This document shows, one piece after another, positions 1 to 37,960 of a DNA stretch of 37,960 nucleotides (within the stretch, counting starts at the first letter, position 1; the number at the start of each line of letters is the position of its first letter). The notes below the pieces were generated by a model that was given only the letters and a program-made list of their open reading frames with translations, made no database searches and was not told the origin of the DNA. Source of the DNA: a virus. Lineage: Duplodnaviria > Heunggongvirae > Uroviricota > Caudoviricetes. The position numbers were made by a program, and so were the translations under genes. The DNA is taken from IMG/VR virus record IMGVR_UViG_2588253749_000006, one strand, 5' to 3'.

Positions 1-390
1 TTACTCTTTTTTCTCCGTATCTGCATCGGGTTCATCAGCAAATAGCTTGCCCTGCATCCGATCCAGTTCTTCTTTTCTTACCCGCTTAACCACGCTGTAG
101 ACCCACTGAAGCGAAACACCAAATTTGCGGGCCAGTTCGTGGTGGTTGCGTCCGTTAAACTCCCTGAAGATTTCCCGGTCGCGCTGACTGACCTTCCATA
201 CCATGCCCATTGGGAAATAAACGTTTTGCCCGCCCCAGACCTGCATCATTCGGTTCGCGACAGCCTGACCAATCTGGTCGGCAATTGCGGGCTCAATATC
301 AATAATCTCGCGAACGGTCTCAGAGGTATGCTGTGCCAGTTCCACCAGGAGTTCCGGCCCTTTACTTCGAAACTGATTCAGGTCGCTCAT
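1..390 (-). CDS. mor: Mor/C-family transcription activator (middle/late gene activator)
   Basis: 129 aa; C-terminal HTH region FNGRNHHELARKFGVSLQWVYSVVKR and NVYFPMG motif match my recollection of Mu Mor/C; sits at the distal end of the early operon directly after the GemA-like gene, as in Mu. Confidence 0.65.
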   Translation of the reverse strand: MSDLNQFRSKGPELLVELAQHTSETVREIIDIEPAIADQIGQAVANRMMQVWGGQNVYFPMGMVWKVSQRDREIFREFNGRNHHELARKFGVSLQWVYSVVKRVRKEELDRMQGKLFADEPDADTEKKE

Positions 391-814
391 GTTTTACTCC
401 CGCAGCTCTGCGCTGCCACTTCTTCAGTTTCTCAATAACACTGCTTGCCTGTTCAGTATTGAGCCAGCGCAGGGCGCTGATGCCCGTTTCCCGCTTGATC
501 CACCGCGCTAATGCATTTTCTGAACGGTCACGAACAATGCCGGCAGCAGCCATTTCAATCCATAGCGCACGGATTTTCCTGGACTGCGGATGGTTATCCA
601 GCGGTAAACCGGAGCTGGCTTTTCCGGCAGGCTTAACGCGAAAGCCTTTCCTTTTCATGGATTCCAGCACGCAGTTTAGTTGTGTGGTATCCATTCCTTT
701 GGTTGAGGCTTTACCGGTCAGCCCCTGTAACATCTGGCGGTAGGTGTCTTCATCCATACCCAGTTCATTACGGGCAATATGAATGAGCTGGATAAGACGT
801 TGTTTAGTCATCAT
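362..814 (-). CDS. GemA-like early protein (Mu gp16 family, DUF1018-like)
   Basis: Track ORF 362..853; start trimmed to tandem ATG ATG preceded by AAGGAG; motif KIRALWIEMAAAGIVRDRSENALARWIKRETGISALRWL resembles the Mu GemA family from memory. Confidence 0.55.
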   Translation of the reverse strand: MMTKQRLIQLIHIARNELGMDEDTYRQMLQGLTGKASTKGMDTTQLNCVLESMKRKGFRVKPAGKASSGLPLDNHPQSRKIRALWIEMAAAGIVRDRSENALARWIKRETGISALRWLNTEQASSVIEKLKKWQRRAAGVKHERPESVSK

Positions 815-1019
815 CGTTGCTCCTTTTACCTGCGCCACCGATATAATCGACATATAAAGGAAGCGCCACAGGCCAGCACAGGAACATCACCGACCAGCTA
901 ATCCAGTAGCCGGCACCACTGTAACGTGAATAAAACCCTGAACGGCGGTGCAGTTCAGCAGTACACCAACCGACAAAACAATACCAGAACATGGCACATA
1001 CAACAGATTCAGCAGTCAT
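804..1019 (-). CDS. small hydrophobic early protein (hypothetical)
   Basis: Internal Met of track ORF 804..1175; about 71 aa with two hydrophobic stretches; stop overlaps the next start. Confidence 0.3.
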   Translation of the reverse strand: MTAESVVCAMFWYCFVGWCTAELHRRSGFYSRYSGAGYWISWSVMFLCWPVALPLYVDYIGGAGKRSNDDD

Positions 1020-1239
1020 TCTGAATATCCCCCCAACTGATATGAATATTACGGGCAGCAATGACAGGGTCGTTATTCCACCATGCACCTGACATGTATT
1101 TTTCAACCTGTTCGCGTCCGGCAATAACACCAATTGTGATCCCCGGCCTGACGTTCTTAAAAAAGGCGCGGGCAAAAAGGTATCTGGCAGATATTCGGCA
1201 GGCTTTTAATTTCCGGCTGTTACCTGATAGCGTAATCAT
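1009..1239 (-). CDS. hypothetical early protein
   Basis: 76-aa ORF; start overlaps the stop of the upstream gene (ATGA-type coupling). Confidence 0.3.
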   Translation of the reverse strand: MITLSGNSRKLKACRISARYLFARAFFKNVRPGITIGVIAGREQVEKYMSGAWWNNDPVIAARNIHISWGDIQNDC

Positions 1240-1916
1240 CTGGCCTCCAGTTTCTGTTGTTCCTGCCCACTGACCGGGCGGTGCAGTCTGACGTTCTGCC
1301 CTTCACGAAACCCCGCATAGCGCGAGGCGCCGCCATTGCGGCTTCTTCCTTTACGCGCCCTGGTGGTTTGCGTTTGCGGGTATTTATGTTCCAGCCACTG
1401 CTGCATCAGTTCACGTTCGTCATCGGTCAGGGCGAAGGACTGTATTTCACTGATAACGGCCAGCACCCAGCCTTCAGCAAACTGGTCACCACGGCTGGTA
1501 CGGGTGGCAGTTTTTATTCTTTTGTTCTGTGCGCTGATATATTGCTGACGCGCCTTTTTCAGCTGGCGGGCCAGCACTTCCCAGGTGTACGCAGCCAGTG
1601 CAGCCCGTTCCCGGTTGCCGTAGAACCCCACACCCGGATATGTGCCGGGGTGAATGATGGAGTTAACACCAAATGCCTCGCGGATGATGTTCATCAGGCC
1701 CAGCATGTAGCGCGGTGGACGGAGGCTGCCTGTCGGCCAGTAGTGACTGATGGTTTCATCAATATCACTCATGGCGATGTCGGAATGTGTGATGCCGTGA
1801 ACATCCATCAGTTTACGGGCACGGCGCAGTGCCAGAGCGGCCTCGTGAGGGTTGCCGGATGCGGCCAGCGCCAGCAACTTTTTCAGTTTCTCAATGTGTT
1901 TATCCTGGTCTGTCAT
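1236..1916 (-). CDS. early protein with DUF2786-like N-terminus
   Basis: 226 aa; N-terminal KLKKLLALAASGNPHEAALALRRARKLM resembles the DUF2786 signature from memory. Confidence 0.45.
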   Translation of the reverse strand: MTDQDKHIEKLKKLLALAASGNPHEAALALRRARKLMDVHGITHSDIAMSDIDETISHYWPTGSLRPPRYMLGLMNIIREAFGVNSIIHPGTYPGVGFYGNRERAALAAYTWEVLARQLKKARQQYISAQNKRIKTATRTSRGDQFAEGWVLAVISEIQSFALTDDERELMQQWLEHKYPQTQTTRARKGRSRNGGASRYAGFREGQNVRLHRPVSGQEQQKLEAR

Positions 1917-2219
1917 TGTTCAGTATCTCCGGTGTACATGACGCCCAGCCGTGCGGCAAGGCGTTCCAGTTTTTTCTGTTTGTGGAAGTCAATCAGCCGG
2001 TCCATCCCCTGAAGGCGCAGCTGCTCTGCCATGATTTCCACGTCTGCCAGCTCTGCCGCGAGGTCACTTTCGCTGCCCTGTCCGTTCAGGTTGCGGGCGG
2101 CACTGGCCGCCAGTTTCGGCGGCCTCTTCTGTCAGTTTCAGGGCCTGTGCATCCGGCCCGAAACGCTGCAGAGCCAGACGGTAGAGGGCGGTGCGGGTGA
2201 GTTCGGTGTTTCGTGTCAT
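1913..2219 (-). pseudogene. possible frameshifted small early gene (two short frames between coupled neighbours)
   Basis: No ORF of 60 aa or more on the coding strand in a ~300 bp slot of an otherwise tightly packed operon; RBS plus ATG at the 5' end and a stop overlapping the next ATG at the 3' end lie in different frames. Confidence 0.3.
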
Positions 2220-2228
2220 GTCGCGCCC

Positions 2229-2501
2229 TCAGTGCTTCCGGTCGACGGTGATGTGCAGGCCGCCTTCTGCAGTAGTTTCCATCCGGTACGGCACCTCATG
2301 CTCTGCCGTGTGGGTGAGTGTGTTCACCAGTACCTGCAGGGCAGCCTCCTTTCCGTTGGTCGCCACAATAGCCTGCGCGGCCATGCTGATTAATTTGGTT
2401 AATACCAGCCGGATATGGTTGGGGGTTTTACAACCACATTCACGGATATATTCCGCGACAATTTCGCGGGTCCGTTTTTCTGCGTCCTGTGGGGTAATCA
2501 T
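2229..2501 (-). CDS. hypothetical early protein
   Basis: 90-aa ORF; start overlaps the stop of the upstream gene. Confidence 0.45.
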   Translation of the reverse strand: MITPQDAEKRTREIVAEYIRECGCKTPNHIRLVLTKLISMAAQAIVATNGKEAALQVLVNTLTHTAEHEVPYRMETTAEGGLHITVDRKH

Positions 2502-2692
2502 TGCGCGTCCTCCCTGTCAGGGCGGAAGAATTCCATGACGGGCACGTCCGCCGAAAAATGCTGGCTGCAGTACGGACAGACCAGGGTGACACGTACTGCA
2601 GGTACGTGGTACTTACCGGACATCACGGCGATGGCGCTGTGAAAACGCAGGGCTGTTATATCCCTCTCGCACTGAATACATTTAAATATCAT
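2498..2692 (-). CDS. small Cys-pair (zinc-ribbon-like) early protein
   Basis: 64 aa with CxxC ... CPYC pairs (IQCERD ... CPYCSQ); GAGGAG RBS upstream. Confidence 0.45.
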   Translation of the reverse strand: MIFKCIQCERDITALRFHSAIAVMSGKYHVPAVRVTLVCPYCSQHFSADVPVMEFFRPDREDAQ

Positions 2693-2789
2693 AATTTAAT
2701 TCTCCTCTGTTTCCGGCGTGCAGAAGCCCACGGCGCTGACGCCGGAATAAAAAAGAAAATGTTTTTATTAAATAATTAACGTGGTGTGT

Positions 2790-3320
2790 TTACTGCACAT
2801 CCTGCTCAAAAGGAATTATTGAAAAATCCTCAATATCACTTTTTATGGTAATACCGGGAATATTTTTCACGGCCTCTTTTTCATTCAGAATGGCATCTTT
2901 ATTTATTTCCTCTTTTACACGAATAAAGCGCTCAAGCCCCAGACGTCTCAGTAGTTCAATAACATTATCCGCTCCACGGATACTGACTGATGGCGGACGG
3001 TTTCGCCACTGCACCTCGCCGGTGGTGAGGTTAGCGAACTTCACCTTCCCGTTGCCGGTCAGTTCATCACGGTGTGCCTCACACCATGTCTGAATACCGG
3101 ACTGCAGTTCGGCCATGCGTTTTTTTAGGCTCTCGGTGAGCGGGGCATAACGTGCGGTGATATCGCCAATGGCGTCATTCATTTCTGTTTCAGCCCTGAC
3201 CAGTTCACGTTGTGCGTCACCGAGCAGTCTGATTCCCTCAATGACCTCTTCGCGTGTCCCCGGTACCCAGAGTGCCGCTGCGGACTTGATACGTTTTGCC
3301 CCTTTTGTACTTTTTGCCAT
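2790..3320 (-). CDS. gam: Gam host-nuclease inhibitor (Mu Gam family)
   Basis: 176 aa; extended similarity to Mu Gam as I recall it (KRIKSAAA ... ETEMNDAI ... WCEANRDELT ... SVSIRG ... GLERFIR ... EDFSIIPFEQ). Confidence 0.85.
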   Translation of the reverse strand: MAKSTKGAKRIKSAAALWVPGTREEVIEGIRLLGDAQRELVRAETEMNDAIGDITARYAPLTESLKKRMAELQSGIQTWCEAHRDELTGNGKVKFANLTTGEVQWRNRPPSVSIRGADNVIELLRRLGLERFIRVKEEINKDAILNEKEAVKNIPGITIKSDIEDFSIIPFEQDVQ

Positions 3321-3347
3321 ATCTTATGATTTCTCCAGTTGTGCTGA

Positions 3348-3617
3348 TTACCACAAAGATTCCGGCCACACGACGCGACAGCCGTGCAGTTCGAAAACGC
3401 CCTGACGGAAATATCCCCTGTGGTCATGTCCGGTATACAGATAACAGGCCTTTCCCTGCTCAAGCATGCGCATGCAATGCGCACTCCGGGAAACGCGGAT
3501 GACAGGTTTGTTACCCCTGATGGTGATGCTTTGTACATCCGTGTTCGTCGCCTTAAGCGCCATAATGGCTGACTGCACTTTGCTGATTTGCTGGTTGATA
3601 CCTGTGGTGGATTTCAT
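3348..3617 (-). CDS. hypothetical early protein (occupies the position of kil in Mu)
   Basis: 89-aa ORF directly downstream of the MuB-like gene; no recognisable motif. Confidence 0.4.
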   Translation of the reverse strand: MKSTTGINQQISKVQSAIMALKATNTDVQSITIRGNKPVIRVSRSAHCMRMLEQGKACYLYTGHDHRGYFRQGVFELHGCRVVWPESLW

Positions 3618-3619
3618 TA

Positions 3620-4813
3620 TTAAACCCCTTTGACAACGTCAGCGTTGACCTGTGGAACCCCGATTTCAGCGGCCAGATTCATGGCGGCTATCACCAGGTT
3701 ACTGACGGCCAGCGGATACAACAGGCTGACCATATTTTTACGATGACTTCCCGGATTGCTCAGGCGGGCACGTATGGCATCCACTGCACTGGCGTCCATA
3801 ATGTCCGTCAGTTGTTTACCTGCCCGTTGCAGTTTGAACGTCAGAAACTCTTCAAGGTTATTGTCCAGAGGCAGAAGTTCGACCACCTCACAGCGCTGAA
3901 CGACTTCACGGACTTCCATATTGCGTTCAGACAGTTTTGTCGCCAGTTCCGGCTGGCCAATCAGCACGATGGACAGCAGTTTTTTGAAACCGGACTCCAG
4001 CTCAAAAAAGCGTTTGAGGTGTTTCAGTGTCGGAATGGGCAGACTGTGGGCCTCCTCAATCACCAGAACGTGGCTGAACCCCGCCTGGCTGCTGTCTTTC
4101 AGGACGCGATGCAACTGGCGAAAGCGGGCGTCCTGACTGCGTCTGATGCTTTCCAGTGGTGCGATGGTACTGATAATGGCTTCGGCAATAGCTGCTGCCT
4201 TCAGGGTTTTCCCTTTCACATCGTTGTCTTCCATAGCGATGATGTATGGCTCGATAACAATTACCGGCGCATTCTCGCGGTTGATACGTTCAGTCAGGTC
4301 GCGGCGCAGCGTGGATTTACCCGCACCGGACTCACCGATGACGGCCATAAACCCACCATGACGGGCTGTCTGGTACAACGCCTCACGCACGTAGCGAATG
4401 TCCGGGGTGGTGAACACATCATCAGAACCCTGCATGGCTTCGTCGGCGAACGGGTCACGGAAAAGACCAAACGCTTTTTTGGTTGCCGGGAATAACACCT
4501 GTTTTTTGAGTAACATATTCTCTTCCTCACTGAGGCTCGTTTTATCTGTGGTACCCGCTGTACGGGGAGTGGCCGCGCCCTGTACAGCATCAAAACTCTT
4601 CGCTGTATCAATCCCCTGACTTTCCAGCCAGGACGCAAGACGCCGGCGCACTTCTCCGGGGCTGGTGCGGGGCCACGCGTTATGATTCACAATCTGGGCC
4701 AGCGTGGCCTCAGAAACATCGACAGCTCTCGCCACCACCGCCTGTGGAATACGGGCCTCTTTCAGTTGCTGCTTCAGTACCAGCATGTTTCCCTCCTCAG
4801 TTGCCGTTAACAA
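3620..4813 (-). CDS. MuB-like AAA+ transposition ATPase
   Basis: Walker A GESGAGKST; N-terminal HTH-like region; immediately downstream of and overlapping the transposase gene; true start may be the internal MLVLKQQ. Confidence 0.75.
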   Translation of the reverse strand: MLTATEEGNMLVLKQQLKEARIPQAVVARAVDVSEATLAQIVNHNAWPRTSPGEVRRRLASWLESQGIDTAKSFDAVQGAATPRTAGTTDKTSLSEEENMLLKKQVLFPATKKAFGLFRDPFADEAMQGSDDVFTTPDIRYVREALYQTARHGGFMAVIGESGAGKSTLRRDLTERINRENAPVIVIEPYIIAMEDNDVKGKTLKAAAIAEAIISTIAPLESIRRSQDARFRQLHRVLKDSSQAGFSHVLVIEEAHSLPIPTLKHLKRFFELESGFKKLLSIVLIGQPELATKLSERNMEVREVVQRCEVVELLPLDNNLEEFLTFKLQRAGKQLTDIMDASAVDAIRARLSNPGSHRKNMVSLLYPLAVSNLVIAAMNLAAEIGVPQVNADVVKGV

Positions 4814-6566
4814 TGCTGATAACGCTGCTGCGGGCCGGCGTGGTCAGCGTGGCCATTACTTCATCCAGTGCGGCTTCCGGTACGCCGTCCGGGTACTGTG
4901 CCGTTAACTGGCGGTAATGTTCCGGCGTCCAGGTAAGGCCGTCGGCGCTGAACTTATCGCGTAGGGCTTTCGCGGCCTCCACATGAGTCATGGGACGTTG
5001 TTCAGTGCGCGGTCTGCGTACATCAGAGACCTGACCGCGCTTCGGTATACAGGCCGGAAGTGTGGCGTCATCAATATGTTTATACGGGTCAAGCCGCCCG
5101 CCGAACGGCAGCGCCTTCGCCTTGCGTGCGGCAGCTGCATCTGCGGCGTTGTCTGTACCGGTGACCAGCGCTTCGGTTTCTTTTGCCGCCGTCTGTGCCG
5201 GTGTTTCCGGCAGGGCTTTGTAACTTTCGCCAAATACCGCCGCGCCTTCAGCAAAGCCAAACTCGTTCTTTCTGACCTCTTCGACCAGGAAGAACGTCTC
5301 GTGGCCGTCCTCACCGGTCAGAACCACCTGTGCCACATCGCTGCGCCATGGGTTACGGGTAATCATCAGTTTTTCACCAACCAGTACGCCCGGTACCGTT
5401 GATACGTCAAATTCAGTGCCCCGGAACGAGACACGAAGTTTTGGCGTGACTTTGCGGAGTTCTGGTGTCGCCACAGCCAGTTCACGGCATACCTCAACGG
5501 AAGGCGCTTTTTTCAGCTGCTCAGCAGTAATCTTCAGCCAGATATCCGTGCGGGTTTTACCGTGGCGGCTGTGAACAGCTGTTGCGTTAAAGTGGCTACG
5601 CCATTTCGCGGCCAGCGCGTTGAGTTCTTCCAGACTGTGAACCGGCCGGAATTTCAGACCCGGCTCAAGCTTGCGTTCGATAATGTCACGCGCCTTTTCC
5701 ACCTGTCCGGTGGCGCGGGCGTTATGCGGCTTGTGCGCTATCAGGTCGATGCCCAGTGAGCGGCACATGTTTTTCGTCATACCCGCGGTGTTTGCCGAGC
5801 CGGGGTCGAGATAGAGTATTTTCGGCACGCCGTGCAGCACGTCTGCGCCGCCACGCTCCTGCATGGCGTTGATAAGCACAGAACACAGGTTCTCACCGGA
5901 TTCCGCACCCGTCACATACTCAACGTAAATCCAGCCGCTGGCATGGTCGGTAATCTCGTAACTCCACACGCGGTCACTGGCGATACGGGCAAGGTTAGCG
6001 GGTTTGTTCTTGTAGAACTTCGCGCTGTCCATCACCTGCAGCCCTTTGTGTCCATTGCTCAGGTAGTAAAGCGTGCAGAGCGAGGCATCAATCTGCCAGA
6101 CGTGATTGGGATGCAGACTGGCCACTTCGGTATGCGGCGCAGGGGCATCCAGTTGTTCCGGGTGCAGGCCATAGTTACGCAAGGCACGACTGATGGCATC
6201 TTCGGACAACGGGAAAAACTCACCGGTGGTTTCATCTGTTCTGCCTGCGGAGATAAAGCCGTTAGCCCGCAGGGTTTCCACTGCATCTGCGATGGAATAG
6301 AGACGCTTACCGTTCTTGCGGGTGGCCTCACGCAGTGTGGCAGATATCAGCGCGGCTTCGTCGCGGGTCAGGGCGCTGCGCCCGGCATCGGCGCGTTTTT
6401 TGCGTTTATCAGTCACAGATACCTCCTTCAGCTTGCGCAGCAGAGTGGCGCGGGACATGCCAAGTTCAGCACAGGCAGCGTCGTATATTGCACCGCGTTT
6501 ACCATGCCCCGCGTCACGTGCCGCGCGGGCGACATAAACCAGTCGTTCAGTCAGGGCAGCATTCAT
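4797..6566 (-). CDS. Mu A-type DDE transposase
   Basis: 589 aa; N-terminal HTH; HVWQIDAS and YLDPGS candidate DDE blocks; followed by the MuB-like gene. Confidence 0.8.
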   Translation of the reverse strand: MNAALTERLVYVARAARDAGHGKRGAIYDAACAELGMSRATLLRKLKEVSVTDKRKKRADAGRSALTRDEAALISATLREATRKNGKRLYSIADAVETLRANGFISAGRTDETTGEFFPLSEDAISRALRNYGLHPEQLDAPAPHTEVASLHPNHVWQIDASLCTLYYLSNGHKGLQVMDSAKFYKNKPANLARIASDRVWSYEITDHASGWIYVEYVTGAESGENLCSVLINAMQERGGADVLHGVPKILYLDPGSANTAGMTKNMCRSLGIDLIAHKPHNARATGQVEKARDIIERKLEPGLKFRPVHSLEELNALAAKWRSHFNATAVHSRHGKTRTDIWLKITAEQLKKAPSVEVCRELAVATPELRKVTPKLRVSFRGTEFDVSTVPGVLVGEKLMITRNPWRSDVAQVVLTGEDGHETFFLVEEVRKNEFGFAEGAAVFGESYKALPETPAQTAAKETEALVTGTDNAADAAAARKAKALPFGGRLDPYKHIDDATLPACIPKRGQVSDVRRPRTEQRPMTHVEAAKALRDKFSADGLTWTPEHYRQLTAQYPDGVPEAALDEVMATLTTPARSSVISIVNGN

Positions 6567-6569
6567 TGG

Positions 6570-7481
6570 TTATGCCTCCAGCCCGTTAATCTGTGGCGTC
6601 GGCTCAGTCAGCCATGAAGGCGCGACATCGCCTGTTGGCTCGTCCGGCAGGTCAAATGTGGAGCGCAGGCTACGCGCTGTGCTTTCCAGTTGACAGACCA
6701 GGCCTGCCATGAAGTCTCTGGGGGTATCAATCATGTTTTCAGCACAATATGCGCACAGTGTCTCAAAAGCGCTGGACAGTCGAACGGCGATGGCAGATTC
6801 CGCCTCAACCGCTAACGCGGTCACTTCCGCCCGCAGTTTCTTCACCTCTTCATCAGGCTCAGGTGGCTGAATACGGGATTTCTTCTCCAGTCTGGTGGAG
6901 AGTGAGTCTATTTTTTCATTTTTATCGGCGAGAACACGCTGTTGTGCTGCGTTGGTTTCGCGCGCTTCACGCAGGGCCTGACGCAATTCACGTACTGACA
7001 TGCGATCAACATCGTCAAGCGTCATGCCGGCAACTGTGCCGCCGTCGGCCAGTTCGGCAAGCTCTTCGTCGTCTTCTGTCATTAATTCGAAAAGTTTGGC
7101 TTTTCCCAAATGTGCCAACGTTGGCACATTTGGTTTCAGCGCCGGGGATAAGTATTTTGTCGATGCTTGCATCATTCTCACAGATGTCCGGTATGCCAGC
7201 CCCAACTCACTTTCAAGAATCTTTATAAACTCCCCGTGTGGTTCATTTTCCTTAAGGATTATCAGCCGCTTACCTGCCTCCAGCATGGCCTCAGCGCTCT
7301 GTGCCATATAAAAGCGTGCCTCATGGACAACACGATCGCGCTCATAGGGCAGACCATCGCCGAACTGTTGCATGATTTCCATGCGATGCTGTGTCATGGC
7401 GTTTAGACTGACATTGAGATCATCCGACAGCGGTACCTCGACGTTCAGTTCAGTGCTAACCGGTGATTTGGTGCGTCCCAT
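6570..7481 (-). CDS. hypothetical early protein (coiled-coil region)
   Basis: 303-aa ORF between the wHTH gene and the transposase; no counterpart in the Mu ner-A-B arrangement. Confidence 0.45.
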   Translation of the reverse strand: MGRTKSPVSTELNVEVPLSDDLNVSLNAMTQHRMEIMQQFGDGLPYERDRVVHEARFYMAQSAEAMLEAGKRLIILKENEPHGEFIKILESELGLAYRTSVRMMQASTKYLSPALKPNVPTLAHLGKAKLFELMTEDDEELAELADGGTVAGMTLDDVDRMSVRELRQALREARETNAAQQRVLADKNEKIDSLSTRLEKKSRIQPPEPDEEVKKLRAEVTALAVEAESAIAVRLSSAFETLCAYCAENMIDTPRDFMAGLVCQLESTARSLRSTFDLPDEPTGDVAPSWLTEPTPQINGLEA

Positions 7482-7491
7482 TGATTACTCC

Positions 7492-7800
7492 TTACAAACG
7501 ACTACCTGAAATAACACGTTGGTTGATTTCGTTAATGCGATCCTGTGCACGTGCCATCTCGTTACTGTGGGCCATGGCGATCTGCAGCAACTGGATGCCT
7601 GGTGCGAAACGCCCGTTTTCCAGTTTCAGGGCTAGTCCCTCTTCGATAAGGGTATTGAGTGCTCGATTGATGTTCGCCGGGGACTCATCTAGGGCTGATG
7701 CCAGTTCACCGTTAGAAACACCGTTCAGAGAGTGACCGCGTAGAGCTTTGAGTACACGTAGGATGCGGGTCCCGGAACTGGAGATATTTACTTTACTCAT
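7492..7800 (-). CDS. winged-HTH DNA-binding protein (IclR-like N-terminal HTH only)
   Basis: Internal Met MSKVNISS of track ORF 7492..7863; GTRILRVLKAL ... GELASALDESPANINRALNTLIEEGLA. Confidence 0.45.
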   Translation of the reverse strand: MSKVNISSSGTRILRVLKALRGHSLNGVSNGELASALDESPANINRALNTLIEEGLALKLENGRFAPGIQLLQIAMAHSNEMARAQDRINEINQRVISGSRL

Positions 7801-7852
7801 GTCACATTTCCATTTTTGCAATATGTGATAACCTGTTGCATATATGGAAAAT

Positions 7853-8041
7853 TTATGCCGCATTTGACGTGGGTTTTAATCCCAGCTTTACGGCAATTTC
7901 ATGGGCTTTGCCGTAACGAGCTTTGGTCTGTCCATTGAGAACACGATAGACCTCATTGCGGCTGTAGCCGTGTTCTTCGGCCCAGCGGGTAAACGTGATA
8001 CCACGCTGACGGAAGAGAGTTTTAACTTGTTCGGAAGTCAT
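7853..8041 (-). CDS. Ner-like small DNA-binding regulator
   Basis: 62 aa; GITFTRWAEEHGYSRNEVYRVL ... HEIAVKLGLKP resembles the Ner/Nlp fold; first gene of the leftward operon, divergent from the repressor. Confidence 0.5.
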   Translation of the reverse strand: MTSEQVKTLFRQRGITFTRWAEEHGYSRNEVYRVLNGQTKARYGKAHEIAVKLGLKPTSNAA

Positions 8042-9536: not shown

Positions 9537-9556
9537 AAAATAACTGCGAGGCTATT

Positions 9557-30104: not shown

Positions 30105-30613
30105 CTGGTGTCACCCGCCAGGTCGGTACGGTCAGTGCCGTTGATGCCGACAGGGTTCAGGCCCGCGTTCGTCTGCCTGAATGCGATAATCTGCGCACAA
30201 ACTGGCTTAACGTGCTGCAGCGCAATACCCAGGATAACAAGGATTACTGGCTCCCTGACGTGGGGGAGCAGGTTGAGGTGCTGCTCGATGCCAACGGCGA
30301 GGATGGTGTTATTCTGGGCGCGGTGTACTCAGACGTCGATAAACCGCCGTTCGGTGATAAAAACGTCCGGGGCACGAAGTACGCTGATGGCGCGGAGTTC
30401 AGTTATGACCGCGCGACCCATACGCTGACGGTCAAAGGAGGTATCGAGCATGTGGTGATCGAGGTTGCAGTGGGTATTAGTCTGAAAGGGAAAACCATTG
30501 ATTTGACAGCTGACACTATCATGGTGAACGGCAATCTTGAAATCAAAGGGAGTACCCATGCGACTGGTAACATATTTGCAGATGGACAGAATTCCAATCA
30601 TCACTCTCACTAA
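30101..30613 (+). CDS. baseplate spike/assembly protein V-like (Mu gp45-like)
   Basis: 170 aa; N-terminal GTVSAVDADRVQARVRLPE ... typical of gpV. Confidence 0.7.
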   Translation: MTGVTRQVGTVSAVDADRVQARVRLPECDNLRTNWLNVLQRNTQDNKDYWLPDVGEQVEVLLDANGEDGVILGAVYSDVDKPPFGDKNVRGTKYADGAEFSYDRATHTLTVKGGIEHVVIEVAVGISLKGKTIDLTADTIMVNGNLEIKGSTHATGNIFADGQNSNHHSH

Positions 30614-30694: not shown

Positions 30695-31411
30695 ATGCGG
30701 TTATCAAGATCCTTATGTAAAGTAGTTGGCGATGTCATTGCTAACTCAGGCTCTCATGCAGCTTTAGATACGTTATTTCTTACTTCGGGAGCACCAGGAA
30801 ACCCTCCGGCAGGATCTCATAGTACAAAATGGAAAGACTGGTTATTTCTTGCAGGGCAAGATCCAGATACAGATAGTCTGGCAGTTCTGGGCGGAGTAAT
30901 TGAGGAGTTTATGGATTTACCTCCAAAAGAAGGTACTCCCGAATATGCAGAATGGAAGGAAAAACGAGACAGAATTGAAGCTGTGTTACAAGAGAATGGA
31001 CTTAGATATTATCGTTTTGGTCGAGTGTTGCCTGAAGGCCACATCCCGTCACACAATATGGATTACCCAGAGACCATAATTACTTATCAACAGCCAGTAA
31101 TGCCAGAAAAAGTTGAGAACTTACTGGAAAGGCTGGTCAAAGGCTTACAGCGAGCAATGCATCCACTTACTCATAGGCGAAAAGGAAGCCAGTCATTATC
31201 TTTTAGCAATGAATATGACGTGCAAGACCTTCTCCATGCATTGCTCAGACCATGGGTTCAGGACATCCGCCCAGAAGAGTTTACTCCAAGTTACGCTGGT
31301 TCAAGTACTCGAATGGATTTTTTGTTACCTGCGCATAAATTAGTACTGGAAACCAAAATTGTTCGTGATCGTTCTCATGCAAAGAAAATCGGCGATGAAC
31401 TTATTATCGAT
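30695..31411 (+). pseudogene. 5' part of an AT-rich cargo gene interrupted by IS2; C-terminal region resembles a PD-(D/E)xK nuclease core
   Basis: The track ORF's stop is the first three bases (TAG) of the IS2 left end; reading frame resumes at 32748; candidate catalytic D in RMDFLL and ExK in LVLETK. Confidence 0.6.
31407..31411. repeat. IS2 target-site duplication, left copy (TCGAT)
   Basis: Identical 5-mer abuts both IS2 ends. Confidence 0.85.
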
Positions 31412-31502
31412 TAGACTGGCCCCCTGAATCTCCAGACAACCAGTATCACTTAAATAAGTGATAGTCTTAATACTAGTTTTTAGACTAGTCATTGGAGAAC
31501 AG

Positions 31503-31868
31503 ATGATTGATGTCTTAGGGCCGGAGAAACGCAGACGGCGTACCACACAGGAAAAGATCGCAATTGTTCAGCAGAGCTTTGAACCGGGGATGACGGTCTC
31601 CCTCGTTGCCCGGCAACATGGTGTAGCAGCCAGCCAGTTATTTCTCTGGCGTAAGCAATACCAGGAAGGAAGTCTTACTGCTGTCGCCGCCGGAGAACAG
31701 GTTGTTCCTGCCTCTGAACTTGCTGCCGCCATGAAGCAGATTAAAGAACTCCAGCGCCTGCTCGGCAAGAAAACGATGGAAAATGAACTCCTCAAAGAAG
31801 CCGTTGAATATGGACGGGCAAAAAAGTGGATAGCGCACGCGCCCTTATTGCCCGGGGATGGGGAGTAA
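31503..31868 (+). CDS. insC: IS2 OrfA (InsC)
   Basis: 121 aa starting [24 protein letters not shown], recognised as IS2 InsC. Confidence 0.9.
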
Positions 31869-32731
31869 GCTTAGTCAGCCGTTGTCTCCGGGTGTCGCGT
31901 GCGCAGTTGCACGTCATTCTCAGACGAACCGATGACTGGATGGATGGCCGCCGCAGTCGTCACACTGATGATACGGATGTGCTTCTCCGTATACACCATG
32001 TTATCGGAGAGCTGCCCACGTATGGTTATCGTCGGGTATGGGCGCTGCTTCGCAGACAGGCAGAACTTGATGGTATGCCTGCGATCAATGCCAAACGTGT
32101 TTACCGGATCATGCGCCAGAATGCGCTGTTGCTTGAGCGAAAACCTGCTGTACCGCCATCGAAACGGGCACATACAGGCAGAGTGGCCGTGAAAGAAAGC
32201 AATCAGCGATGGTGCTCTGACGGGTTCGAGTTCTGCTGTGATAACGGAGAGAGACTGCGTGTCACGTTCGCGCTGGACTGCTGTGATCGTGAGGCACTGC
32301 ACTGGGCGGTGACTACCGGCGGCTTCAACAGTGAAACAGTACAGGACGTCATGCTGGGAGCGGTGGAACGCCGCTTCGGCAACGATCTTCCGTCGTCTCC
32401 AGTGGAGTGGCTGACGGATAATGGTTCATGCTACCGGGCTAATGAAACACGCCAGTTCGCCCGGATGTTGGGACTTGAACCGAAGAACACGGCGGTGCGG
32501 AGTCCGGAGAGTAACGGAATAGCAGAGAGCTTCGTGAAAACGATAAAGCGTGACTACATCAGTATCATGCCCAAACCAGACGGGTTAACGGCAGCAAAGA
32601 ACCTTGCAGAGGCGTTCGAGCATTATAACGAATGGCATCCGCATAGTGCGCTGGGTTATCGCTCGCCACGGGAATATCTGCGGCAGCGGGCTTGTAATGG
32701 GTTAAGTGATAACAGATGTCTGGAAATATAG
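31826..32731 (+). CDS. insD: IS2 OrfB (InsD) transposase catalytic part
   Basis: 301 aa recognised as IS2 InsD; overlaps InsC in the -1 frame at the A6G site. Confidence 0.9.
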
Positions 32732-32742
32732 GGGCAAATCCA

Positions 32743-32929: not shown

Positions 32930-32952
32930 TAAATCCCTTTAATATCGTTCTT
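32930..32952 (+). promoter_or_regulatory. candidate late-promoter activator site upstream of the baseplate operon
   Basis: CCTTTAATATCGT about 30-45 bp upstream of the gpW-like start; the same motif recurs near 11457 and 24826. Confidence 0.35.
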
Positions 32953-32977: not shown

Positions 32978-33325
32978 ATGAAAACGACCTCAGTATTCTG
33001 GCAACCGGCTCTGCAGGCTCCCGGCGAAATCGTCCGGGGGCTGGATGATATCCAGCAGTCCATCCAGATCATCCTGCGGACTCCCCGCGGCAGCGACCCG
33101 CATCGCCCAGAGTTCGGCAGCAATCTGCACCTTTATATCGACTGGCCTGTCGACCGGGCCATTCCGCATGTGGTTCGCGAATCCGTCGATGCCATCAGGC
33201 GCTGGGAACCCCGCTGCCAGCTTATGTCGGTTAAACCCGCCGTCGACGGCGAACATCTTACGCTCCGGGTGAGCTGGAAAGGCTCAGACGGACAACCCCG
33301 TACTCAGGAACTGCTATGGCGCTGA
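32978..33325 (+). CDS. baseplate wedge protein (GPW/gp25-like)
   Basis: 115 aa; GLDDIQQSIQIILRTPRGSDPHRPEFGSNLHLYID resembles the GPW/gp25 family. Confidence 0.7.
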   Translation: MKTTSVFWQPALQAPGEIVRGLDDIQQSIQIILRTPRGSDPHRPEFGSNLHLYIDWPVDRAIPHVVRESVDAIRRWEPRCQLMSVKPAVDGEHLTLRVSWKGSDGQPRTQELLWR

Positions 33326-34419
33326 CAGAACCCGATTTTATTGAACTCGATGCCGATAAAATCACGGCAGAAATGATTGCGAAATATGAAGCGGATACCG
33401 GCAAAACGTTGTACCCGGCACAGGCAGAACGTCTGCTGATAGATCTGTGGGCCTATCGCGAAATGCTGGTCAGGGTGGCGGTACAGGAGGCGGCGAAGCT
33501 GAATCTGGTCGCCTTTTCCCGGGAGCCGATGATTGATTACCTCGGAGAACTGGTTGGTGTATACCGCCTTCCCGCGCAGCCTGCCACCACCACACTTCAG
33601 TTCTCTGTGGATGAGGCACTGGCCATTGATGTGCTGATCCCGGCAGGCACCCGCGTCAGCGCTTCCGACAGCGTGATTTTTGCCACCGATACAGATGTAG
33701 TGCTGAAGGCCGGTTTGCAACTGGTCAATGCCCCTGCCACCTGTACTGAGCCGGGTACCTCTGGCAACGGCTGGCAACCGGCTCAGGTCAGTCAGCTGCT
33801 TGATGAGATTGATAACGTTGACCTGCTGGTGACCAATCTGACGGCCAGCACTGGCGGTTCAGAGCAGGAAGACAATGACCGACTCCGGGAGCGTATCAGG
33901 CTGGCCCCGGAGTCATTCACCAATGCCGGAAGCCGTGGTGCATACCGTTTTCATGCCATGGGGGCGCATCCCAGTATTGTCGACGTCGCTGTTCTTTCTC
34001 CCGTTCCCGGTACTGTCGAGCTGTATCCACTGCTCAGCACTGGTCTGCCAGACAGCAGTATCCTCACTCTGGTAGAGAGTTTCTGTTCTGACGAAAAAGT
34101 CAGACCACTCACTGATACCGTGCGGGCTAAAACACCTGTTCAGGTGGATTACACCATTGAAGCCAGGATTACGATCTATCGTGATCAGGATGCAATGTCG
34201 GTAAAGGACAACGCTAACAGCGCCATACAGAACTGGGTGGCATCACGTGCCGCCACGCTGGGACGCGATATTGTCCCCAGCCAGATTATCAGTGCATTGT
34301 CCGTTTCCGGGGGGTACCAGGTTGAACTGGTGACACCGGCACTGCGGGTGGTTGCAGAAAACGAATGGGCAAACTGTACGGCAATCACTCTTAACGTGAC
34401 AGGGGTGTCCGATGGCTGA
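33316..34419 (+). CDS. baseplate J-like protein
   Basis: 367 aa following the W-like gene. Confidence 0.75.
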   Translation: MALTEPDFIELDADKITAEMIAKYEADTGKTLYPAQAERLLIDLWAYREMLVRVAVQEAAKLNLVAFSREPMIDYLGELVGVYRLPAQPATTTLQFSVDEALAIDVLIPAGTRVSASDSVIFATDTDVVLKAGLQLVNAPATCTEPGTSGNGWQPAQVSQLLDEIDNVDLLVTNLTASTGGSEQEDNDRLRERIRLAPESFTNAGSRGAYRFHAMGAHPSIVDVAVLSPVPGTVELYPLLSTGLPDSSILTLVESFCSDEKVRPLTDTVRAKTPVQVDYTIEARITIYRDQDAMSVKDNANSAIQNWVASRAATLGRDIVPSQIISALSVSGGYQVELVTPALRVVAENEWANCTAITLNVTGVSDG

Positions 34420-34990
34420 GGCGCTACGACTACCGCCACCGCTTGAGGGTGATATCAGTCTCAAAACGCTGGGAAGACTGGCCGAACGGCTGGATAACAT
34501 CGACCTGAGCGTACTGATGGTCTGTCTCGTCGATATCGTCGACAGTTCCGCGCTGCCATGGCTGGGCGAGCAGTTCTCGTTGTTCGGCGATGGCTGGGAA
34601 CTGGCGGAATCGGACGATGTACGCCGCATGCTTATCAAATCCGCTATCGAGCTACACCGCTATAAAGGAACGCCGTGGTCAATCCGGGAAATTATCCGCC
34701 GTTTTGGCTTTGGCGAAGTAGAGCTGATAGAAGGTACGGGGCAGATCGGCTACGACGGTAAACACAGTTACAACGGACTTTTCGTCCATGGCGATGCACA
34801 AGCCTGGGCAGTCTATCGGGTCATCCTTCAACAGCCCATCACTAATGATCAGGCAGCGCTGTTACGTCAGACGCTCGCTGCCTTTGCTCCGGCTCGCTGC
34901 CATCTGGCAAGCCTGGAATATCAGTCTGTCGCCATTCGATACAACAGTACTACCCGTTATGACGGTAGTTACAACCACGGGAGCAGTTAA
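34412..34990 (+). CDS. tail protein (P2 gpI / Mu gp48-like)
   Basis: 192 aa between the J-like and fibre genes. Confidence 0.6.
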   Translation: MAEALRLPPPLEGDISLKTLGRLAERLDNIDLSVLMVCLVDIVDSSALPWLGEQFSLFGDGWELAESDDVRRMLIKSAIELHRYKGTPWSIREIIRRFGFGEVELIEGTGQIGYDGKHSYNGLFVHGDAQAWAVYRVILQQPITNDQAALLRQTLAAFAPARCHLASLEYQSVAIRYNSTTRYDGSYNHGSS

Positions 34991-34992
34991 TT

Positions 34993-35937
34993 ATGGCAAA
35001 TCTACCTGAAACCCCACAGTGGGAAGACGGCATCTACCAGATTGAGGTCTCTGACCCCGTTCTGGGCGGGCCTGACGGAATTTCTAACCGTCAGGGTAAA
35101 CAACTGGCCAGCCGCACGCTGTACCTGAAGCAACAGGTTGAAAAAGGCGGGGCTGACCTTGCGAAACACATCGCGGCAGCAGACCCGCATGCCCAGTATG
35201 CACCGAAAGCCAGTCCGGCATTCACCGGCACACCAACAGCACCTACACCTGCAAATGGCGATAACAGCAAAAAGCTGGCGACGACGGAGTTTGTGGCCAA
35301 AGCACTTGCGGCGCTTGCAGGCAGCGCCCCTGAGACACTGGATACGCTTAAAGAGCTGGCTGACGCTCTCGGTAATGATCCAAACTTTGCGACTACGGTA
35401 CTGAACAAGCTGGCGGAAAAGCTGGCTAAAGACCAGAACGGCGCAGATATTCCTGATCCTGCGCTGTTTGTCAAAAACCTTGGTTTGGGAGAAGGTACTC
35501 CAGCTATTGGCGTTCCGTTCTTCTGGCCCTCCGCGGCAATGCCAAATACTGTAATCGACAGCTGGTCCAGTATGGTGTTTTTGAAGTTCAACGGGGCGAA
35601 ATTTTCTGCCACTGATTACCCTGTGCTGGCGAAAGTGTTTCCTTCGCTGGTATTACCTGAAGCCCGCGGTGATTTCATTCGTATCTGGGATGACGGGCGA
35701 GGTGTAGACGGTGGTCGCGAATTATTAAGCTGGCAGGCAGCTACAAACTTTTCTCAGTTTGCCGGGAATATAGGCGATGGTGCGGGCCACGCAATTAATT
35801 TTCATGATGGTATCGCCGGAAATCAGCCAGGATTTTCACGATTTAATTTCACCAGTAACTCTGTGGGTGATGGTGTGAATTTTGTTGCCGTCAGACCGCG
35901 AAATATTGCATTTAACTTTCTGGTGAGGGCTAAATGA
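34993..35937 (+). CDS. tail fibre protein; constant N-terminal part plus currently expressed variable C-terminal part
   Basis: 314 aa; the recombination site lies in-frame at codons 159-167, so everything downstream is inside the invertible segment. Confidence 0.75.
   Translation: MANLPETPQWEDGIYQIEVSDPVLGGPDGISNRQGKQLASRTLYLKQQVEKGGADLAKHIAAADPHAQYAPKASPAFTGTPTAPTPANGDNSKKLATTEFVAKALAALAGSAPETLDTLKELADALGNDPNFATTVLNKLAEKLAKDQNGADIPDPALFVKNLGLGEGTPAIGVPFFWPSAAMPNTVIDSWSSMVFLKFNGAKFSATDYPVLAKVFPSLVLPEARGDFIRIWDDGRGVDGGRELLSWQAATNFSQFAGNIGDGAGHAINFHDGIAGNQPGFSRFNFTSNSVGDGVNFVAVRPRNIAFNFLVRAK
35468..35493. repeat. left invertase crossover site (gix/hix-like), inside the tail fibre gene
   Basis: TTGTCAAAAACCTTGGTTTGGGAGAA; 21 of 26 positions identical to the reverse complement of the right site, with a perfect 14-bp core TTGGTTTGGGAGAA. 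Confidence 0.6.
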
Positions 35938-36530
35938 TGACCCCAATTTTTGATGAAAATGGACTGGCTACAGTGCCGGGCGATATGCGTTGTTTTTATT
36001 ATGATGCAGTAACGTATGAATATACGGGCTGGTCTGATGAATATATTAATACTGGTGTAAGTATGCCCGCCTGTTCCACTGGTATTGACCCGGGCGAAAA
36101 CATTCCGGGAAAAGTGGCAGTATTTACGGGTAAGGGATGGAGCCATGAAGAAGACCATCGCAATGAGACTGTTTACTCAACAGAAAATGGTGCAACTGTT
36201 ACAGTGGATTATATCGGTGCCATCAAAGACGGTTATGTCACGCTTTCACCGTTAACGCCATACGATAAATGGGATGGTGAGAAATGGGTGACAGATTCTG
36301 AGGCACAACACGGTGCCGCAGTAGAAGCGGCAGAAGCACAGCGCCAGTCACTTATTGATGCAGCAATGGCTTCCATTAGTCTGATTCAGCTGAAATTACG
36401 GGCCGGGCGGAAGCTGATGCAGGCAGAGACCTCCCGACTTAACACTGTGCTGGATTACATTGACGCGGTGACGGCAACAGATACCAGCACCGCGCCGGAT
36501 GTCATCTGGCCTGAACTGCCGGAGGAGTAG
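35934..36530 (+). CDS. tail fibre assembly chaperone (Tfa/U-like), expressed orientation
   Basis: 198 aa directly after the fibre gene; C-terminal DYIDAVTATDTSTAPDVIWPELP. Confidence 0.7.
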   Translation: MMTPIFDENGLATVPGDMRCFYYDAVTYEYTGWSDEYINTGVSMPACSTGIDPGENIPGKVAVFTGKGWSHEEDHRNETVYSTENGATVTVDYIGAIKDGYVTLSPLTPYDKWDGEKWVTDSEAQHGAAVEAAEAQRQSLIDAAMASISLIQLKLRAGRKLMQAETSRLNTVLDYIDAVTATDTSTAPDVIWPELPEE

Positions 36531-36942
36531 GCCATTCAATATCTGGCGCACTGGAAGTATCGACCAGCTCCAGTGCGTCCAGATAATCCAGCCACAAATT
36601 ATATTGCGCCAGTTCCTCACCTTTCAGACGACCAATAGCCGCTTTACCAGCCCATTGTTTACTGTTCATATAATCGTTGGCCTGATTAATCAATTGCTGC
36701 TTTTTCAGTTCGGCTGCAGCAATCTGTTCCTCATGTGTTGGTGGTGGAATTTCAGACCATGCAGGAAAACCATTTTCTCCAGCGATACGGATTTTTCCTT
36801 TCGGCGGTAATCCGGAAAACTCAATATACACTTGCTCATCAACTTCAACAGCATCATCTGGCCATGAGTCAGCTTGCGTGTAATCCTCTTTCATCTCCAA
36901 GGGATAGAAAGAGTTTGTAGTCGCGGAATATATGTAATTCAT
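36502..36942 (-). CDS. alternative tail fibre assembly chaperone (U'-like), silent orientation
   Basis: 146 aa convergent with and overlapping the Tfa gene; C-terminal DYLDALELVDTSSAPDIEWPTPP. Confidence 0.7.
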   Translation of the reverse strand: MNYIYSATTNSFYPLEMKEDYTQADSWPDDAVEVDEQVYIEFSGLPPKGKIRIAGENGFPAWSEIPPPTHEEQIAAAELKKQQLINQANDYMNSKQWAGKAAIGRLKGEELAQYNLWLDYLDALELVDTSSAPDIEWPTPPAVQAR

Positions 36943-36968
36943 TTTTCACTCCATAAAGTTAAAAGAAA

Positions 36969-37316
36969 TTAACACCCTAATGCGAAAAATGAAGCACCGA
37001 TACCGGGTACGCCTGCTCTGGAAATAAATTTCACCGGGTCCTGGTTATAACCGGCACAAGCTATATAGCCAACATTTGCACTGCCGGGAGTGTAATCCTG
37101 AGTTGCAAATACCCGCAGACATCTATTCGGAAATGCAATCGGAAAATAGGTTACTGTGTCCTGAGACGTCAGCGAAACATCAATTGGCCCCCATTGAATA
37201 ATTAAACCGGATGGCAATTTTTGATATCCAGTACCTGAAACAGAAAGCGTGAAGCTACCCATATCAGGTATCTGATTCGTCCCTGTCCCCACATTCCTTT
37301 TTGCCGCTTCTCCCAA
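36969..37316 (-). CDS. alternative tail fibre variable C-terminal cassette (Sv'-like), promoterless
   Basis: 115-aa frame opening at the right crossover site, in the same codon phase (GGT TTG GGA GAA) as the fibre gene at the left site. Confidence 0.6.
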
Positions 37317-37333
37317 ACCAACGTTTTCGTCTT
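37308..37333. repeat. right invertase crossover site (gix/hix-like)
   Basis: TTCTCCCAAACCAACGTTTTCGTCTT, about 55 bp upstream of the invertase start. Confidence 0.6.
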
Positions 37334-37387
37334 AACTCCCACCTATACCAGCTATGTATTTTTAACAAAACAAAGAGGATATTTTTC

Positions 37388-37960
37388 ATGCAAATTGGCT
37401 ACATTCGTGTGTCAACAAATGACCAGAATACAGATTTACAACGAAACGCACTGAACTGCGCAGGATGTGAACTGATTTTTGAGGATAAAATCAGCGGAAC
37501 AAAGTCAGCCCGACCGGGATTGAAAAAGCTGCTCAGAACGTTATCAGAAGGAGATACGCTCGTTGTCTGGAAGCTGGATAGGCTGGGCAGAAGCATGAAA
37601 CACCTTATCACTCTTATTGAGGAACTGCGGGGAAAAGGGGGTAATTTCCGTAGTCTTACAGACAGCATTGATACGTCAACACCCATGGGACGTTTCTTTT
37701 TTCACGTCATGGGGGCTTTAGCGGAAATGGAGCGCGAATTAATAGTTGAACGAACACTGGCCGGACTTGAGGCAGCACGTGCACAGGGGCGTATTGGCGG
37801 ACGCCGTCCGAAACTGACAAAAGAGCAACATGAACAAATAGCAAGGCTGATCAAAAATGGCTATAGCAGGAAACAGTTGGCAATTATTTACGATATCGGT
37901 ATATCGACGATTTATCGTTATCACCCTGTAGAGGAACTCCAAACTCAAGCTAAGTTGTAA
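37388..37960 (+). CDS. serine DNA invertase (Gin/Pin/Hin/Cin family)
   Basis: 190 aa from the ATG with AAGAGGA RBS inside track ORF 37301..37960; MQIGYIRVSTNDQNTDLQRNAL ... closely resembles e14 Pin / Mu Gin as I recall them. Confidence 0.9.
   Translation: MQIGYIRVSTNDQNTDLQRNALNCAGCELIFEDKISGTKSARPGLKKLLRTLSEGDTLVVWKLDRLGRSMKHLITLIEELRGKGGNFRSLTDSIDTSTPMGRFFFHVMGALAEMERELIVERTLAGLEAARAQGRIGGRRPKLTKEQHEQIARLIKNGYSRKQLAIIYDIGISTIYRYHPVEELQTQAKL

Follow-up and report, generated by a model that had tools for sequence, protein, structure and literature searches.

Divergent early and late gene clusters in an Escherichia coli prophage: very probably a BcepMu-like transposable myovirus carrying Mu-type modules

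The viral DNA analysed here, IMG/VR record IMGVR_UViG_2588253749_000006 (37,960 nucleotides (nt), hereafter "the window", meaning this whole stretch), is almost certainly a nearly complete BcepMu-like transposable myovirus prophage in E. coli, whose divergent gene clusters are the normal layout of its lineage and not a rearranged Mu. The prophage totals ∼38.2 kb with one copy of the insertion sequence (IS) IS2 counted in. An early block of 15 genes occupies positions 1-8041 on the minus strand, and an XRE-type repressor reads from 8092 on the plus strand into cargo, lysis, head and tail genes; this is what the open reading frame (ORF) map shows, in agreement with family scans and with how RefSeq annotates a near-identical genome, and the signs of both GC skew and AT skew switch at ∼8 kb. 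The original prediction, made from the letters of the window, had described this arrangement and recognized a transposable Mu-like prophage, and both descriptions are borne out, the latter by an rve transposase, TG...CA ends and four insertion sites. It had further taken the layout to be that of Mu with its early module inverted. This did not hold, as 80 of 80 relatives (the best 80 of 547 transposase-bearing IMG/VR contigs, 69-100% identity; all counts out of 80 below refer to this set) have the same layout, and so does BcepMu. Its tentative comparison with BcepMu-type phages was correct and is the whole explanation.

BcepMu (AY539836; genus Bcepmuvirus), which we group with its relative phiE255 as the closest known system, is collinear with the window. 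By tblastn, 38 window genes match BcepMu with order and strand conserved, at 28-77% amino acid identity. On the bottom strand of BcepMu, as here, lie gp01 (C/Mor, single and at the left end), gp02 (GemA), gp08 (an ExeA-like ATPase), gp09 (the rve transposase), gp10, gp12 and gp16; on its top strand, again as here, the gp17 repressor is followed by a variable slot, the holin, SLT, Rz and Rz1 lysis genes, a Mu-like head module and a P2-like tail. BcepMu also has the same TG...CA ends and the same terminal repeat layout with two boxes. The published descriptions agree with this picture. They place the BcepMu genes in two divergent clusters, one strand carrying regulators, transposase and small genes and the other repressor, lysis, head and tail genes, with the control region at the interface (PMC2771037); they locate lysogeny control at genes 16/17 and report 23-bp terminal repeats and a P2-like tail (PMC2771037, PMC2628397, PMC2920897). 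In these accounts the transposase is of the Tn552/IS1604 type, unrelated to MuA, and the ends are given as terminal CA dinucleotides (PMC2771037) or as TG...CA (PMC2628397). The two-cluster architecture is ancestral to a separate lineage and contains no inverted block of a Mu genome. Since the divergent arrangement is a published hallmark of a known phage group, and the phage is abundant in public E. coli genomes, there is little new in the layout itself.

The early genes of the window, listed from its left edge, are as follows (percentages are identities).

1-390, minus strand: Mor/C-family transcription activator, last gene of the leftward operon (Pfam Mor, 1.3e-43; 54% to BcepMu gp01)
362-811, minus strand: GemA homologue (Pfam GemA, 5e-41; 43% to BcepMu gp02)
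804-2692, minus strand: small early genes, which found no BcepMu or Mu homologue by tblastn
1236-1916, minus strand: DUF2786/DUF7168 protein, one of these small early genes
2498-2692, minus strand: 64-amino-acid zinc-ribbon protein, its four cysteines forming two CxxC pairs
2790-3320, minus strand: Mu-type Gam, which shields DNA ends from host nucleases (Pfam Phage_Mu_Gam, 5.6e-41)
3620-4786, minus strand: AAA+ (AAA_22/ExeA-like) ATPase, the positional analogue of MuB (59% to BcepMu gp08; Pfam AAA_22, 3.7e-20; PHROG 296, "DNA transposition protein")
4797-6566, minus strand: DDE transposase with an rve core, of the BcepMu gp09 type (69% to gp09 over 581 amino acids; rve the only Pfam match; PHROG 310, transposase, 1e-146)
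6570-7481, minus strand: DUF3102 protein, BcepMu gp10 homologue (41%; Pfam DUF3102)
7492-7800, minus strand: winged-helix-turn-helix (IclR/MarR-like) regulator, BcepMu gp12 homologue (34%)
7853-8041, minus strand: 62-amino-acid helix-turn-helix (HTH) protein of the BcepMu gp16 family, first gene of the early operon and Ner/Cro analogue by position (45% to gp16)

Phage Mu (AF083977) resembles the E. coli phage in being a transposable myovirus with TG...CA ends and a gix/Gin tail-fibre switch. Its recognizable homologues in the window, put at no more than 10 genes besides a short stretch of the tail-fibre gene, are Gam (63%), GemA (36%), Mor (31%), TerS (a weak match), TerL (49%), the portal (27%), F (48%), G (29%), a stretch of 25 amino acids of S, and Gin (74%). 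By contrast, Mu c, ner, A, B and all Mu tail genes had no match in the window at E <0.01 (MuA and MuB none at E <0.1), no Mu-specific Pfam domain was detected in the transposase or the ATPase, and nucleotide similarity to Mu is 2.5%. Searches of PDB sequences with the transposase and the ATPase likewise revealed no relative of MuA, MuB, TnsB or TnsC and gave marginal matches to retroviral-integrase cores and P-loop proteins. The overall plan differs as well: in Mu the repressor occupies the left end and all other genes are read rightward, whereas here the repressor is set 8 kb in from the left end and points the same way as the late genes, and Mu has a three-tier cascade (Mor, then C), its own tail genes and com/mom. 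The order ner, A, B, gam, GemA, mor that had been proposed for the early operon thus stands as a statement about positions; the assignment of ner, A and B as Mu homologues does not. Nor are the two genes between the ner position and the transposase extra, as had been supposed. They are the gp12 and gp10 homologues, which occur in 69 and 79 of the 80 related loci respectively and are therefore core genes of the lineage. In practical terms, the "A", "B", "ner" and "c" of this prophage should not be annotated or modelled as Mu proteins.

Of 5426 complete E. coli genomes, 645 contain a related prophage, and the match spans 80% or more of the first 19 kb in 523 of the 645. A scan with the transposase alignment identified 547 IMG/VR contigs that encode a related transposase. 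Among the 80 loci, the genes on the transposase strand were DUF3102 (79/80), the ATPase (79/80), GemA (75/80), Mor (75/80) and the winged-HTH regulator (69/80), and those on the opposite strand were the holin, TerS and TerL (62/80 each) and SLT (61/80), with no exceptions in either group; Gam was present in 37. Recurrence in at least 523 complete E. coli genomes and in all 80 related loci indicates that the arrangement is not an accident of assembly. Enterobacterial BcepMu-like sequences, namely PhiKM (PQ738613), the KP12_2 contig (OM835952), Phi06_2974 B (KM389306) and E. coli prophages, share the layout of the window and are 87-100% identical to it in nucleotide sequence across most of the genome; GenBank files PhiKM, with 94% identity in the shared part, under Bcepmuvirus, and E. 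coli ST131 prophages have been reported under that genus name (bioRxiv 10.1101/2022.05.07.487787). Relatives of the PhiKM/KP12_2 type have different fibre cassettes and lack the restriction-endonuclease moron and IS2 described below. A more distant parallel is Burkholderia phage KS10, which has a divergent repressor/early arrangement and BcepMu gp16-like and gp10-like genes upstream of the transposase (PMC2628397), but differs in its D3112-like transposase type, its lack of TG...CA ends and its module order. The value of these results is mainly one of annotation, in that a prophage present in about one-eighth of complete E. coli genomes is of BcepMu type and not a rearranged Mu.

The window matches prophages of enterotoxigenic E. 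coli genomes such as NZ_CP025865.1, which agrees with it save for five small differences and one extra IS100. The copies in E. coli 8178 and GABEEC10 are free of insertion sequences. The prophage of NZ_CP025865.1 sits between ybaV and ppiD, which are neighbours in K-12, and comparison with the empty K-12 site placed the left end 163 bp before position 1 of the window and the right end 78 bp past position 37,960. The junctions read ...ccttgTTTGTT|TGATTAGACTTGAGATAAATG... and ...CGCGGCGCATCA|TTTGTTaacag, and the phage end sequences are TGATTAGAC... and ...GCGCATCA. The window was evidently trimmed at its first and last coding sequences, and the two outer stretches are too short for a gene. The Mor gene does reach base 1, as had been noted, with its stop codon at bases 1-3. 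Extension of the sequence, the check that had been suggested, thus located both ends outside the window as expected; for the late activator, which was also expected outside, the remaining 163 + 78 bp leave no room.

Four independent insertions (ybaV/ppiD, aqpZ/ybjD, inside yehQ and inside a cobalamin adenosyltransferase-like gene), of which the ybaV/ppiD site was checked against the empty K-12 locus, all have TG...CA ends and a 6-bp target duplication. The duplicated sequence is TTTGTT at ybaV/ppiD and GCAAAT, TTTAAT and TCCCGT at the other three sites. The target duplication of Mu is 5 bp, and the same length had been anticipated here; it was 6 bp in 4/4 insertions examined. At each of these four sites the complete unit, 37.5-40 kb long, lies between matching terminal repeats and 6-bp duplications. 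All four termini of the E. coli phage and BcepMu begin with TGA and carry two GMGATAWWT boxes each, at positions 11-21 and 33-43, and both termini of the E. coli phage align with both of BcepMu. Repeats of this type inside the window would imply two unrelated elements. The paired end-box pattern found no match in the window even at two mismatches, and the single box gave one isolated 10-mer, in the tape-measure gene, against 0.78 expected by chance; with no end-type repeats inside, the window is one element. The ends and 6-bp duplications allow the prophage to be delimited exactly, and a prophage caller that trims to the outermost coding sequences loses 163 bp and 78 bp of essential end sequence. 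Insertion at many sites, some of them intragenic as in yehQ and the cobalamin adenosyltransferase-like gene, makes the phage an insertional mutagen in E. coli populations.

The interface between the two clusters contains the following.

8042-8130, no strand: divergent control region with a candidate leftward early promoter and a candidate operator
8092-8553, plus strand: XRE-type HTH repressor, BcepMu gp17 homologue (39%; Pfam HTH_31 and HTH_3)

The candidate early promoter reads leftward, with a -35 element TTGACA at 8117-8112 and a -10 element CATAAT at 8094-8089, and is the sole match of 11 of 12 positions to the sigma-70 consensus on the minus strand of 1-8200. Within its spacer lies a perfect palindrome, TGAGAAC-N4-GTTCTCA (8093-8110), which is a plausible candidate for the repressor operator. 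The repressor allele is variable and was detected in 21 of the 80 relatives.

With regard to late expression, Mu Mor and Mu C used as queries both matched the gene at 1-390 and no other, and this is the only Mor/C-family gene in the element. A missing late activator is unsupported, given this result and the mere 163 + 78 bp of phage DNA that lie outside. The window contains five copies of the sequence SWTTAAWATC, where 0.28 would be expected. Four of the five, all plus-strand, precede the lysis, head, tail-chaperone and baseplate-W units by 41-65 nt.

11460-11469, plus strand: candidate late-promoter element CTTTAAAATC, upstream of the lysis genes
18912-18921, plus strand: candidate late-promoter element of the head unit
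24829-24838, plus strand: candidate late-promoter element of the tail-chaperone unit
32937-32946, plus strand: candidate late-promoter element of the baseplate-W unit, at the same position in BcepMu

BcepMu carries the motif at three corresponding places (lysis, head and baseplate), and 41 of 47 distinct IMG/VR relatives have it 40-62 nt upstream of the holin, with a background of 0.011 per 160 nt. We regard SWTTAAWATC as a candidate late-promoter element, at which the single Mor/C protein may act.

Alternative explanations of the two-cluster layout were weighed against these data. A true Mu-type (Muvirus-like) prophage whose c-to-mor block has been physically inverted would account for the Mu homologues Gam, GemA, Mor, TerL, F and Gin and for a functional early order that mimics Mu. 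However, the absence of detectable homologues of Mu c, ner, A and B, tail genes that are P2-like and not Mu-like, a duplication of 6 bp and not 5, the presence of one Mor/C gene only, the nucleotide similarity of 2.5% to Mu, and a layout constant in 80/80 relatives and in BcepMu make this very improbable, and we consider it effectively refuted. We give hardly any credence to two unrelated neighbours, a transposon-like early module beside a P2-like defective prophage, despite the transposon-like transposase family, the P2-like tail module and the opposite strands of the two blocks, because no end-type repeats lie between the blocks, the terminal repeats and 6-bp duplications enclose the whole unit at four independent sites, and BcepMu, an isolated, plaque-forming phage (PMC2628397), has the same combined genome. 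A prospect to be taken more seriously, which we nonetheless consider rather unlikely, is that the prophage is of BcepMu type but that this copy is a decaying, non-inducible remnant. IS2 in a gene of the tail region, one extra nucleotide at each of 2114 and 10041 that otherwise matching prophages lack, and a further IS100 or IS66-family element in sister strains are all consistent with decay; the lesions are, however, confined to accessory genes (the moron, a cargo gene and a small early ORF), and every recognizable replication, lysis, head and tail gene is intact and of full length in comparison with BcepMu.

Several observations count against our reading of the window as a nearly complete BcepMu-like prophage, or narrow parts of it. 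IS2 and the two frameshifts relative to relatives may bear on the viability of this copy. The usual rule for a genus calls for ∼70% identity of nucleotides genome-wide. The phage reaches ∼21% similarity to BcepMu at the nucleotide level (67.5% identity across the 31.6% of the window that aligns), and under that rule it would be classed as a relative of Bcepmuvirus and not as a strict member. In the BcepMu prophage of B. cenocepacia NCTC13227, the end flanks AGCATG (locus L091, 6173-6199) and AATTGG (locus L094, 2906-2932), on the same contig, are not a duplication, possibly as a result of rearrangement after replicative transposition or because the ends belong to different copies; given these flanks, the 6-bp rule is established for the E. 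coli phage only. The early promoter and operator are proposed from matches to consensus. Finally, the late motif was defined on some of the sites on which it is counted, and the related sequences that contain it are not independent.

What this analysis may add to existing knowledge is modest and concerns the length of the duplication (6 bp), the candidate late-promoter element together with a cascade that has one activator, and the presence of Gam and gin modules derived from Mu in a phage with a BcepMu backbone, none of which we found in the accessible literature. The duplication and the Mu-derived modules were directly observed; the late-promoter cascade is a proposal. As a broader and tentative proposal, about which we have more doubt than conviction, enterobacterial BcepMu-type phages may use a single Mor/C protein, made last from one 8-kb leftward early transcript, to activate directly four rightward late promoters marked by SWTTAAWATC with an AT-rich box ∼10 bp upstream, a shorter cascade than that of Mu, and may also be Mu/BcepMu mosaics (Mu-type Gam, gin and G-segment) that generate 6-bp and not 5-bp duplications.

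A likely life cycle can be outlined. In the lysogen, the XRE repressor (8092-8553) and the cargo would be expressed rightward, and binding of the repressor to the spacer palindrome (8093-8110) would block one strong leftward promoter. Induction would yield one long leftward transcript encoding in turn the gp16-family HTH protein, the winged-HTH regulator, the DUF3102 protein, the rve transposase, the AAA+ ATPase in a target-handling role, Gam, GemA and lastly Mor/C. The transposase would act on the TG...CA termini, each with two GMGATAWWT sites 22 bp apart, and produce the 6-bp duplications; the termini and duplications themselves are observed. Transposition is presumed to be replicative from what is known of the family. 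The single Mor/C protein would then turn on the four rightward late units (lysis, head, tail and baseplate), each behind a copy of SWTTAAWATC. At the right end, the Gin-type invertase would flip a segment of 1.8 kb and so alternate two fibre C-termini with their chaperones, a switch whose logic is evident in the sequence and of which both orientations are found in nature. Relative to BcepMu, the E. coli phage has acquired Mu-type modules (Gam, and the G-segment with gin), and its cargo is different.

The two phages also differ in gene content. BcepMu has SSB-like (single-stranded DNA-binding protein) and HU-like genes where the E. coli phage has the Mu-type Gam. The E. coli phage lacks the BcepMu gp53 acyltransferase, its cargo after the repressor differs, and it has an extra nuclease moron between V and W. 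The published account describes BcepMu as having no invertible fibre system (PMC2771037). The corresponding cassette of the window is made up as follows.

34993-35937, plus strand: tail-fibre gene, codons 1-167 constant and the remainder within the invertible segment
35474-35494, no strand: left crossover site (gix-like), inverted repeat
35495-37306, no strand: invertible segment of 1.8 kb (Pfam Caudo_TAP twice, Gp53-like_C)
to 36530, plus strand: current fibre C-terminus and assembly chaperone, in the invertible segment
36502-36942, minus strand: alternative chaperone, in the invertible segment
36969-37316, minus strand: alternative fibre C-terminus, in the invertible segment
37307-37327, no strand: right crossover site (gix-like), 21 nt, 95% complementary to 35474-35494
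37388-37960, plus strand: Gin-type serine invertase, the last gene (Pfam Resolvase and HTH_7)

The N-terminal 143 amino acids of the fibre are 53% identical to BcepMu gp52, and the stretch around the crossover site is 68% identical over 25 amino acids to Mu S at the G-segment boundary. The crossover inverted repeats of 21 nt are AAAACCTTGGTTTGGGAGAAG. Inversion in silico yields an in-frame alternative fibre of 279 amino acids that has its 167 N-terminal residues in common with the current form. The segment was found in opposite orientations in two E. coli genomes (loci L005 and L006) with identical protein accessions. A terminal invertase is also present in KP12_2 and in the E. coli prophages that were fetched; the partial PhiKM record lists none.

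Downstream of the repressor is a low-GC cargo region of 2.6 kb.

8550-11154, plus strand: low-GC cargo (40-45% GC) without BcepMu homologues
8550-9536, plus strand: single-pass membrane protein of 328 amino acids, which starts 4 nt before the repressor stop and has a transmembrane helix at about residues 183-213
9557-10048, plus strand: cargo ORF of 203 amino acids, cut to 163 by the single-nucleotide insertion at 10041
10579-11154, plus strand: DUF2441 protein

The position of the membrane protein suggests an exclusion or conversion gene expressed in the lysogen. Its N-terminus shows weak similarity to Flk (1.6e-11, under the family cut-off). No defence system was assigned to the three cargo genes by PADLOC, Pfam or NCBIfam. 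In PhiKM (L007, 28993-31446) and KP12_2 (L010, 24342-26949) the slot that separates the start of the early operon from the lysis cassette is filled with a different set of genes, in part oppositely oriented and including a DNA adenine methylase, which both PhiKM and KP12 carry in this immunity/cargo region; no copy of the repressor allele of the window was detected there. This slot is an exchange hot spot for immunity and cargo genes.

Several further observations concern the early block. The 62-amino-acid HTH protein scored 93.9 bits (4e-27) against NCBIfam TIGR04111, for which the cut-off is 34. The DUF3102 family comprises 1661 clusters at 50% identity. An AlphaFold2 model of the DUF3102 protein with a predicted local distance difference test (pLDDT) score of 89 is all-helical, with a long coiled-coil hairpin, and had no informative structural neighbour; a single-sequence model (pLDDT 46) was not usable. 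Comparison of the family profile with PDB sequences returned nothing beyond coiled-coil noise, and a function is also absent from the literature searched. The 64-amino-acid zinc-ribbon ORF (2498-2692) was considered as an Ogr-like late activator and rejected as the main candidate, having no BcepMu homologue and no match to the Ogr/Delta Pfam family. Relative to NZ_CP025865.1, a single-T insertion at 2114 splits an early ORF of 101 amino acids (1913-2219). The extra T at each of 2114 and 10041 may be a genuine frameshift, or else one of the assemblies contains a sequencing error there. An Rfam scan of the window gave no match.

The remaining features of the plus strand are the lysis, head, tail and baseplate genes, the moron and IS2. 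The lysis genes are homologous to BcepMu gp21-gp23, the head module is 45-67% identical to gp25-gp38 in the same order, the tail genes are 28-77% identical to gp39-gp48 (sheath 77%), and baseplate W, J and I are 54-65% identical to gp49-gp51. The tail genes showed no similarity to Mu tail genes.

11520-11870, plus strand: holin (Pfam Holin_2-3)
11873-12601, plus strand: SLT transglycosylase endolysin (Pfam SLT)
12585-13235, plus strand: Rz
∼12931-13197, plus strand: embedded Rz1 lipoprotein with a lipobox and a proline-rich tail
13232-22571, plus strand: head module, which opens with two small genes
13869-14414, plus strand: TerS
14411-16006, plus strand: TerL (63% to BcepMu)
16006-17499, plus strand: portal of the Mu gp29 type
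17480-18301, plus strand: Mu F-like protein
18304-18762, plus strand: Mu G-like protein
18977-20092, plus strand: protease/scaffold
20107-21060, plus strand: major capsid protein, followed by head completion genes
22561-30613, plus strand: P2-like contractile tail genes (sheath, tube, chaperones, tape measure and U-, X-, D- and V-like genes)
30695-31414, plus strand: moron with a C-terminal restriction-endonuclease domain of the DpnII/MboI type, truncated by IS2
31416-32742 (approximate), plus strand: IS2 insertion, unrelated to the phage, with breakpoints set by comparison with the uninterrupted prophage L005
32978-33325, plus strand: baseplate W
33316-34419, plus strand: baseplate J
34412-34990, plus strand: baseplate I

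The moron lies between the baseplate V and W genes, with no methylase beside it. In its intact form (L005, 11838-12713, minus strand) it encodes 291 amino acids, of which the C-terminal half is a PD-(D/E)XK domain (Pfam PF18742, 4e-47), and it matched Aga_Helical-REase of PADLOC at 1.8e-30. Speculatively, it could be an orphan nuclease from which the host is protected by Dam methylation. It occurs in just 17 of 5426 complete E. coli genomes and is split by insertion sequences in 5 of the 17, by IS2 in the window and by IS2 and IS100 in NZ_CP025865.1. The IS2 copy contains the IS2-family transposase with a programmed frameshift annotated in RefSeq, and sister genomes also have an IS100 or an IS66-family element within the moron gene or close to it.

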